Program-made: the position numbers and the translations under genes | DNA from: a virus | Lineage: Duplodnaviria; Heunggongvirae; Uroviricota; Caudoviricetes | Strand: one strand, 5' to 3' | IMG/VR virus record: IMGVR_UViG_2645727948_000013 | DNA: 26,984 nucleotides | Shown: positions 1 through 1,226 of the stretch, in pieces | Layout: each line of letters begins with the position of its first letter | Position numbering within the stretch: position 1 is the first letter of the stretch | The notes under the pieces: model-generated | The model's input: the letters and a program-made list of their open reading frames with translations, nothing else | Database searches by the model: none | Told to the model about the DNA's origin: nothing

Positions 1-1226
1 CCTAAACCAAGGTAATCAAGAACGCTCTGAATACTGGTCTTACCAAGAATGGCGCGTCCAACACTTGTCAATGCAGTTAACGCGGCACGATCAACACCTG
101 TGAAATAAGGGAGTTTATCTGCTGCTGTAGCTAGTGCCGCTAGAGCAGTGAGCGTAGCGTCTGCCGCTTGCTTTCCATTAGCCAAATCATATGCAGCCTT
201 GACAGCTTTCGGTGTGGCGGCCAGCACTTCAGACGTGCTGTTAGTGGCGCTACTGAGCTGAGTGATGCCTTTCGCTGTCAATGAAGCTGTTGGCACACCA
301 GTGATCTGATTCCAGGGATGTGTATGACTGGATGGTGCCTTTCCGGCTGCTAGATCGTATGCAGCTTTAACCGCTTTTGGAGTTGCAGCTAATGTTTCAG
401 AAGTGCTGTTGGTGTCGCTACTGAGCTGAACTATCCCTTTTTGTGTCGTGGTTGCATCCTGGGCTGTATACTTCCCGTTAGCCAGGTCATATGCAGCCTT
501 GACAGCTTTCGGTGTGGCGGCCAGCACTTCAGACGTGCTGTTAGTGGCACTACTGAGCTGAACTAATCCCTTTTGCGTTGTGCTTGCATCCTGCGCCGTA
601 TACTTGCTTTTCGCCAGATCGTAGGCTTTTTTAACTGCCAGCGAACTCGCAGCAACATCACTTCTGGTACTGGTTACAGAGTCTGAAATATCAATGCCGA
701 TCGTGCGGTTGATACGCTCGGATGTATCAATCATCTCTTGAGTAATGGTAGATACGCCAGCAGGGATATTCACCGTACAAACCAGCAGTTCCCCATCACC
801 TAACTGATATGAATCGGTATAGGTTCTGGCAACAAATTCAGCTGCATGAATATGTGACGCGGTATTCACCTGATAGGTATCTTCTCCAAGAAGGTATCTT
901 CCCTTCAGCACAATTGCATATTTCTTGCCTGCGTTAAGTGCAAGAGAGATATCCTTACGATGCTGAATAGTTACCTGGTAGAATTCACCAATATCCACTG
1001 ACGCCGCGCCAGCGGTTTTATCTCCATCCACTGAGGTGATTAACAGGTTCATTCCACCGCCAGGCTTAGGCAAGAAACCAGCATAAAATCCCGGGTCAAC
1101 AATTCCCCTGAATTTTCGGTTTAGAGCGGCTGACAGATATGGTTCGTGGTATTGCACATCAGCCACCAGAGCCAACGACTCGGGTGATGGGTAAGTAACC
1201 GATGTAACAACTGTAACGTCATTCAT
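1..1226 (-). CDS. S: Tail fibre protein S, constant N-terminal part (C-terminus lies beyond the window start)
   Basis: Minus-strand ATG at 1226..1224 after a GGA-type RBS. Translation begins MNDVTVVTSVTYPSPESLALVADVQYHEPYL and contains three copies of the KG(I/L)VQLSSxTNSTSE..LAATPKAVKAAYDLA motif typical of P1 S / T4 gp37-class fibres. Open to position 1. Confidence 0.85.
   Translation of the reverse strand, partial: MNDVTVVTSVTYPSPESLALVADVQYHEPYLSAALNRKFRGIVDPGFYAGFLPKPGGGMNLLITSVDGDKTAGAASVDIGEFYQVTIQHRKDISLALNAGKKYAIVLKGRYLLGEDTYQVNTASHIHAAEFVARTYTDSYQLGDGELLVCTVNIPAGVSTITQEMIDTSERINRTIGIDISDSVTSTRSDVAASSLAVKKAYDLAKSKYTAQDASTTQKGLVQLSSATNSTSEVLAATPKAVKAAYDLANGKYTAQDATTTQKGIVQLSSDTNSTSETLAATPKAVKAAYDLAAGKAPSSHTHPWNQITGVPTASLTAKGITQLSSATNSTSEVLAATPKAVKAAYDLANGKQAADATLTALAALATAADKLPYFTGVDRAALTALTSVGRAILGKTSIQSVLDYLGL
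188..260. repeat. Intragenic direct repeat, copy 1 (tail-fibre motif)
   Basis: 73 bp nearly identical to 488..560 (one mismatch at 249/549). A third, DNA-diverged copy of the same peptide motif lies at about 330..430. Confidence 0.8.
488..560. repeat. Intragenic direct repeat, copy 2 (tail-fibre motif)
   Basis: Pairs with 188..260; the copies are 300 bp apart in the same orientation. Confidence 0.8.

Follow-up and report, generated by a model that had tools for sequence, protein, structure and literature searches.

The tail fibres of a phage or phage-plasmid decide which bacteria it can enter, and among the Enterobacteriaceae resistance genes commonly travel on P1-like phage-plasmids. The locus considered here lies at the left end of a 26,984-nucleotide stretch of DNA from a tailed phage (IMG/VR record IMGVR_UViG_2645727948_000013), the whole of which is referred to below as the window. 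It encodes one protein motif several times over, and two of the copies are almost identical in DNA while the copy between them is not, which raises the question of how the repeats of a fibre gene come to be alike, and whether their number is fixed. An earlier note, made from the sequence alone, had read the pattern as the result of recent gene conversion or unequal recombination, and as a substrate for variation in repeat number.

Gene setting

The window opens within the constant N-terminal part (Sc) of a P1-family tail-fibre gene S, which runs on the minus strand from 1226 to 1, with its ATG at 1226–1224, 408 codons visible and a reading frame that is open at the left window edge. DNA identity to gene S of P1, P7 and SJ46 is 93–96% over window 480/537–1226, protein comparison shows colinearity with P1 S as far as residue ~230, and PHROG tail-fibre families match the product. 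The gene order sit–pmgA–bplA–16–R–S is also that of the P1 annotation; from the ORF list and that annotation, sit is placed at 4373–7765, pmgA at 4017–4376, bplA at 2587–4020, 16 at 1751–2590 and R at 1238–1672, all on the minus strand. The bplA homologue (also found in loci L003–L020) is named ‘bleomycin hydrolase’ by RefSeq in nearly all P1-like plasmids, whereas the P1 record gives a baseplate protein, and the former name is probably a propagated mis-annotation.

Alignment with annotated P1 cixR places a cix/mix-type site-specific inversion site at 1–20 (no strand assigned), with TCTTAAACCA followed by AGGTATTGGA in P1 and CCTAAACCA followed by AGGTAATCAAG in the window, and the crossover point between window 9 and 10. 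The constant part of S thus terminates at a crossover site of the type used by Cin/Min-family invertases, and the variable receptor-binding C-terminal part must lie beyond the window, as do the invertase gene and variable cassettes, which are found in relatives. A tail-fibre assembly gene also lies just past the left window edge, where a contig seems to have broken at the invertible segment. A second copy of the AACCAAGG octamer, the core of cix-type sites, occurs at 14230, where about one chance occurrence is expected per 27 kb over two strands. Scanning of window 1–1800 gave no promoter-like site and terminator-like matches at chance level only, no tRNA genes were found in the window, and inspection of its right end for a repeat boundary revealed nothing obvious.

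Repeat units of the S gene

PF03406 (Phage_fiber_2) is the sole Pfam match in the S fragment, with an E-value of 1.3e-69 and 230 bits (cut-off 22) over four stretches. The motif KGxxQLSSxTNSTSExLAATPKAVKAAYDLA is found three times in the minus-strand translation, confirming the three copies of the earlier note. Unit 1 (441–572, minus strand) is a 132-nt unit of the type termed alpha here, in which the core (residues 219–249, at 480–572) is followed by the linker NGKYTAQDATTTQ, and its length is that of the P1 ‘repeated element a1’. Unit 2 (273–440, minus strand) is a 168-nt unit of a second type, beta, with its core (residues 263–293) at 348–440 and the 25-residue linker APSSHTHPWNQITGVPTASLTA; its synonymous sites are saturated relative to alpha. 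Unit 3 (171–272, minus strand) is a terminal alpha, with a core (residues 319–349) at 180–272 followed by NGK. The linkers between the units are thus 13 and 25 residues long and the start-to-start spacings 132 and 168 nt. The array is followed directly by a conserved constant-part end (QAADATLTALAALATAADKLPYFTG...SVLDYLGL; 10–170, minus strand), which has a protein-level match in P1 and SJ46.

Two details of the original description need amending. The interval 188–260, which had been counted as the first of three tandem copies, is the third in gene order, as the gene lies on the minus strand, and upstream of the three full units there is a partial fourth (SDVAASSLAVKKAYDLAKSKYTAQDASTTQ; 573–662, minus strand; residues ~189–218). 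It was found by Pfam and by a short-motif search, consists of the C-terminal half of the motif with a linker, and corresponds to P1 ‘repeated element a0’.

The near-identity of the outer copies stood up well. Intervals 188–260 and 488–560 differ at a single nucleotide, as had been claimed, with G at 249 and A at 549; the near-identical tracts extend over 75 nt (187–261 and 487–561, no strand assigned) with this one mismatch, identity being unbroken over at most 62 nt, and they are homology available for recombination at an offset of 300 nt. The middle copy, described as diverged at synonymous positions, is so indeed: it differs from the outer units at ~26 of 102 nt, nearly all of them synonymous, with pS of 0.78–0.83 (about 0.8) and dN of 0.05–0.09. 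With identical residues and the codon usage of adjacent genes, 10.5 of 32 codons would be expected to coincide between units 1 and 3, whereas 25 do (P = 6e-8), and the near-identity of these copies is beyond chance. Units 1 and 2 agree at 12 of 30 codons against 9.8 expected, i.e. at chance level, and the protein motif has no need of DNA identity between its units.

An alternating array of variable length

Reading of 18 related arrays at the DNA level for their unit types revealed two DNA families of core, 26 of 102 nt apart: alpha in units of 132 nt, and beta in units of 168 nt including the 25-residue linker. Alleles of alpha are 0–15 nt apart, and beta is nearly invariant and array-specific across plasmids. 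The spacings of 132 and 168 nt alternate in all 18 arrays, which have the form alpha–(beta–alpha)n, in some cases with a further, diverged alpha (‘D’) at the end. In the window n is 1, its two alpha copies lying 300 nt apart (132 + 168), and its three copies make up a 300-base two-unit repeat in the shortest form that alternates. Lengths of 132, 168 and 300 nt are all divisible by three and hence in frame. The N-terminal 218 residues are common to all relatives, as is the closing stretch of the constant part (QAADATLTALA...YLGL) as far as the inversion site. A single departure from the canonical unit lengths was seen, in the eighth unit of L017 (AP024695.1), a beta of 195 nt rather than 168, with an in-frame insertion of 27 nt. 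Many plasmid matches lose homology at window 171; a mosaic junction was considered there and rejected, as BLAST had stopped where extra units start.

How far unit number varies was assessed with a joined-flank query (window 1–170 plus 603–3000), in which the span of the match in a record gives the array length, arrays above ~1.8 kb being missed. Out of 484 matching PLSDB plasmids (P1-like), 60 were sampled evenly, and about 14 of these have both flanks. Among the 60 best PLSDB records, whose flanks match the window at 99.3% identity or more, the inferred number of units ranges from two (8 records) and three (8) through four (3), five (2), six (5), seven (4), eight (10), nine (7) and ten (1) to eleven (9) and twelve (3). 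In 49 of these 60 the array length is exactly 132 + 300n (+132), and most of the others are 1–6 nt off. Direct reading of fetched loci confirmed arrays of 2, 3, 4, 5, 6, 7, 8, 9, 10, 11 and 12 units, and 120 proteins drawn independently from a far larger collection include the orders ababa, ababaa, abababa and abababaa, among others. Arrays of 11 and 15 units occur in two phage records, L002 (ON470615.2) and L022 (ON470617.2), where the annotation breaks S into several fragments, some beta units being 167 nt long rather than 168, which probably reflects single-base sequencing errors.

These unit counts come from public assemblies of unknown technology, in which short-read assembly can collapse arrays, and the differences are those between records. 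Three pairs of loci have zero differences in ~2588 nt of flank and yet carry 9 versus 11, 12 versus 8 and 5 versus 3 units, and unit number is unequal in all 10 of the pairs whose flanks differ at one position or none. Judged from the assembled records, such pairs show the fibre segment of the alpha/beta class apparently changing in length faster than point mutations accumulate. The suggested substrate for repeat-number variation is therefore borne out, with relatives of near-identical flanks carrying from 2 to at least 12 units. The outcome that the earlier note had named as contrary to its reading, namely the same three copies in every relative, alike in their pattern of identity, is the opposite of what was found when S genes were compared across P1-like elements.

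Genes of the classical P1 type provide the comparison. In the S genes of P1 and SJ46 a single a-type unit precedes two ‘b’ elements of 222 nt, and b1 and b2 of P1 are 63% identical to each other. With a joined query of P1 flanks the interval is essentially fixed at 612 nt in all 17 sampled plasmids (613 nt in one), even though their flanks, at 96.1–99.8% identity to P1, are more diverged than those of the alpha/beta class. Diverged repeats thus go with fixed length in the one type and near-identical repeats with variable length in the other, and length variation tracks DNA-level repeat identity, as a recombination model predicts.

Evidence for exchange between copies

Alpha copies are more alike within arrays than between them. 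The mean divergence of alpha cores within arrays is 1.2 nt, compared to 2.54 ± 0.29 when units are shuffled among arrays, a difference reached in 0 of 5000 permutations, although this is not a strict probability since the plasmids are related to each other, and short-read polishing, which can homogenise copies, would inflate within-array identity. The internal 300-nt beta–alpha blocks are identical to one another within each of five arrays (L006, L009, L010, L011 and L014).

The closest relative of the window, plasmid locus L003 (NZ_OY757102.1), gives a more detailed view. Over 1–1226 the two differ only at 231, 249 and 531, and these three differences all lie in alpha cores, compared to 16 scattered over the next 3.5 kb upstream. 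The changes at 231 and 531 are the same change, exactly 300 nt apart, one in each alpha copy. The base at 249 is the beta state and is absent from every other alpha unit read, which makes the single 249/549 mismatch private to the window sequence.

Recombinant alleles are also present. At four diagnostic sites internal alphas have CCCG and terminal units TTTA, and the hybrids TTCG and CCTG occur. In unit 3 of the window a 5' part of the internal-alpha type is joined to a 3' end (GATTTGGCTAATGGA) of the terminal ‘D’ type, and this unit appears to have arisen by recombination between an internal alpha and a terminal unit of a distinct type; an unequal exchange between alpha and D that removed 132 nt would yield a third unit of this type. 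Recent gene conversion or unequal recombination is thus supported by the variation between pairs with identical flanks, by the homogenisation of alphas within arrays and by the paired change at 231/531. Exchange from copy to copy, as originally proposed, agrees with these data; the unit exchanged is the 300-nt pair of alpha and beta and not the single motif.

Weighing of alternative explanations

Most probably, the locus is an in-frame Phage_fiber_2 array in the constant part of the S gene of a p15B/P1-like phage-plasmid, which homologous exchange between registers expands, contracts and homogenises. Exchange of alpha with alpha or beta with beta in different registers would add or remove 300-nt (100-residue) blocks, by unequal crossing-over between sister or co-resident genomes, or by slippage or gene conversion within one molecule, and exchange of alpha with D would add or remove 132 nt. 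The same exchanges would homogenise the copies, i.e. produce concerted evolution, and since the reading frame would be kept at every step, the outcome would be a fibre with its repeat segment, set between an N-terminal domain attached to the baseplate and a C-terminus that is invertible and binds the receptor, made longer or shorter. The alternating architecture, copy-number polymorphism, homogenisation and recombinant alleles described above are observed in the arrays; the enzymology of exchange, which could be RecA-dependent or slippage, and its rate go beyond these observations.

The three-unit state of the window could itself be an assembly artefact, in which the true n is above one and a short-read assembler crossed the beta–alpha loop once; copies 1 and 3 would then be genuinely near-identical all the same. 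The window has its first base no more than 9 nt from an inversion crossover, a typical place for a contig to break, and alpha–beta–alpha is the exact collapsed form of longer arrays, because internal 300-nt blocks are identical; arrays of more than three units also make up most of the 60-record sample. The window sequence carries no sign of collapse, however, exactly three units are likewise found in at least 8 of the 60 complete plasmid records that match best, and the three-unit arrays of L003 and L019 were read directly, so that an artefact is judged unlikely here, if still worth bearing in mind. Much less credit can be given to the idea that selection on nucleotide sequence, through a DNA or RNA signal or codon-level constraint, keeps copies 1 and 3 alike. 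The alpha core is conserved across many plasmids, and this is the scenario by which the earlier note itself would have been overturned, but beta encodes the same motif at chance codon agreement, which implies that codon-level constraint is unneeded for function. Unit number ranges from 2 to 12, alpha units of one array share polymorphisms that differ from those of other arrays, and the scan for promoter- and terminator-like sites gave nothing above chance; this reading is largely refuted and barely credible.

Import from the tail-fibre genes of other phages, with alpha and beta coming from different donors and copies 1 and 3 being two imports of one donor segment, has more in its favour. Tail-fibre genes are classic mosaics, the side-tail-fibre genes of other phages (H23, H24) match window 360–602 at ~83%, the saturated synonymous divergence between alpha and beta is compatible with separate origins, and some units in L015, L016 and L020 have the haplotype of another array. 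The exact 300-nt periodicity, the identical internal blocks and the 132 + 300n series, on the other hand, fit in-register intragenic exchange, and the paired 231/531 change needs transfer from copy to copy. Mosaic import may be the origin of the alpha/beta pair, but it gives no account of the near-identity of copies 1 and 3, for which we consider it quite improbable as an explanation.

Relation to known systems

Sandmeier et al. reportedly proposed in 1992 that the repeated elements of P1 and p15B, which are related only in part, form mosaics produced by sequence amplifications. The repeats of the S gene are themselves long known, as ‘a/b elements’ (M81956) and as PF03406. In P1 the Sc repeats are denoted a0, a1, b1 and b2 (GenBank M81956, NC_005856) and belong to the same gene, at the same position and with the same N-terminal 218 residues as in the window, where a0 (36 nt) and a1 (132 nt) correspond to the partial unit and the first alpha unit. 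The difference lies in what follows: the window has alpha–beta–alpha without b elements and belongs to a class of highly variable number, whereas P1 has a single a-type unit and two 222-nt b elements at a fixed length. In the searchable literature, outside which Sandmeier 1991 and 1992 fall, we found no earlier report of copy-number variation in the S genes of P1-like elements, of the 300-nt alpha/beta organisation, of a polymorphism of 2 to at least 12 units among near-identical phage-plasmids, or of the contrast with the length-stable P1 type.

The likeness to p15B-type (Min) plasmids rests on the relatives of the window and on one array-bearing plasmid, L018, as the invertible region itself lies past the left window edge. 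Beside S, the closest relatives have a recombinase, a tail-fibre assembly gene and a number of small tail-fibre cassettes, several such cassettes being present in relatives that are 99.8% identical over window 1–1226, and L018 (pMCR_SCKP-LL83) has an invertible region reported to be 99% identical to p15B min (PMC5786510). In L003 (3383–4027) and at the 3' end of S in L006 the frame stops 30–40 codons past the inversion crossover (...AEMQWCSIFF*); these orientations, in which the fibre gene is without a receptor-binding C-terminus, may represent a non-productive inversion state or a rearranged cassette.

PF03406, known from lambda Stf, prophage side tail fibres and Mu S, matches the window, and one unit aligns with residues 87–152 of the Mu tail-fibre protein S. 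This family is a protein motif only, however, while the alternating alpha/beta order in DNA and the copy-number polymorphism belong to this gene lineage. The window array is similar in kind to tandem-repeat surface proteins that evolve in concert. A comparable case of length change is provided by the collagen-like tail fibres of E. coli prophages, of which copies otherwise >90% identical differ by in-frame multiples of the repeat (PMC3368898); those repeats are 3-residue collagen or 7-residue coiled-coil units, compared to units of 44 and 56 residues forming a 100-residue pair in the window.

Fibre length and host range

Judged by its position after the N-terminal domain and before the invertible C-terminus, the repeat segment is presumably the fibre shaft, whose length would matter for adsorption. 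Searching the PDB by sequence returned Mu tail-fibre S chains only (5yvq, 9ki1 and 8ju3), with one unit aligned; the cryo-EM paper on Mu models only the N-terminus of the gp49 fibre (PMC11915804), and papers of 2012 and 2021 call the structure of the Phage_fiber_2 repeat unknown (PMC3368898, PMC8078820). An AlphaFold2 monomer model of the 408-residue fragment, built from a 10-sequence alignment, has a mean pLDDT of 37.8 and is unusable, the PKAVKAAYDLA segments appearing helical in it as a weak hint at such low pLDDT.

For those who work with these plasmids, the S gene is prone to assembly collapse and fragmented annotation, and the lengths of S in databases should be treated with caution. The alpha/beta class makes up about a quarter of the 484 PLSDB records and is variable in length, whereas the classical P1-type gene is length-stable.

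A tentative proposal, which we regard as rather unlikely on present evidence but worth stating, is that the alpha/beta array is a selected ‘rheostat’ of fibre length, such that host range would be varied both by inversion of the fibre tip and by changes in fibre length through high-frequency homologous exchange. If this were true, populations would always hold fibres able to reach their receptor through O-antigen or capsule of different depth, with two synonymously recoded units setting the step size at 100 residues per beta–alpha pair over a range of 2 to at least 12 units, and the alternation of alpha and beta would stop the array from collapsing to one unit. The S gene would in any case offer a concrete and testable example of DNA-level repeat identity governing structural variation of a receptor-binding organelle.
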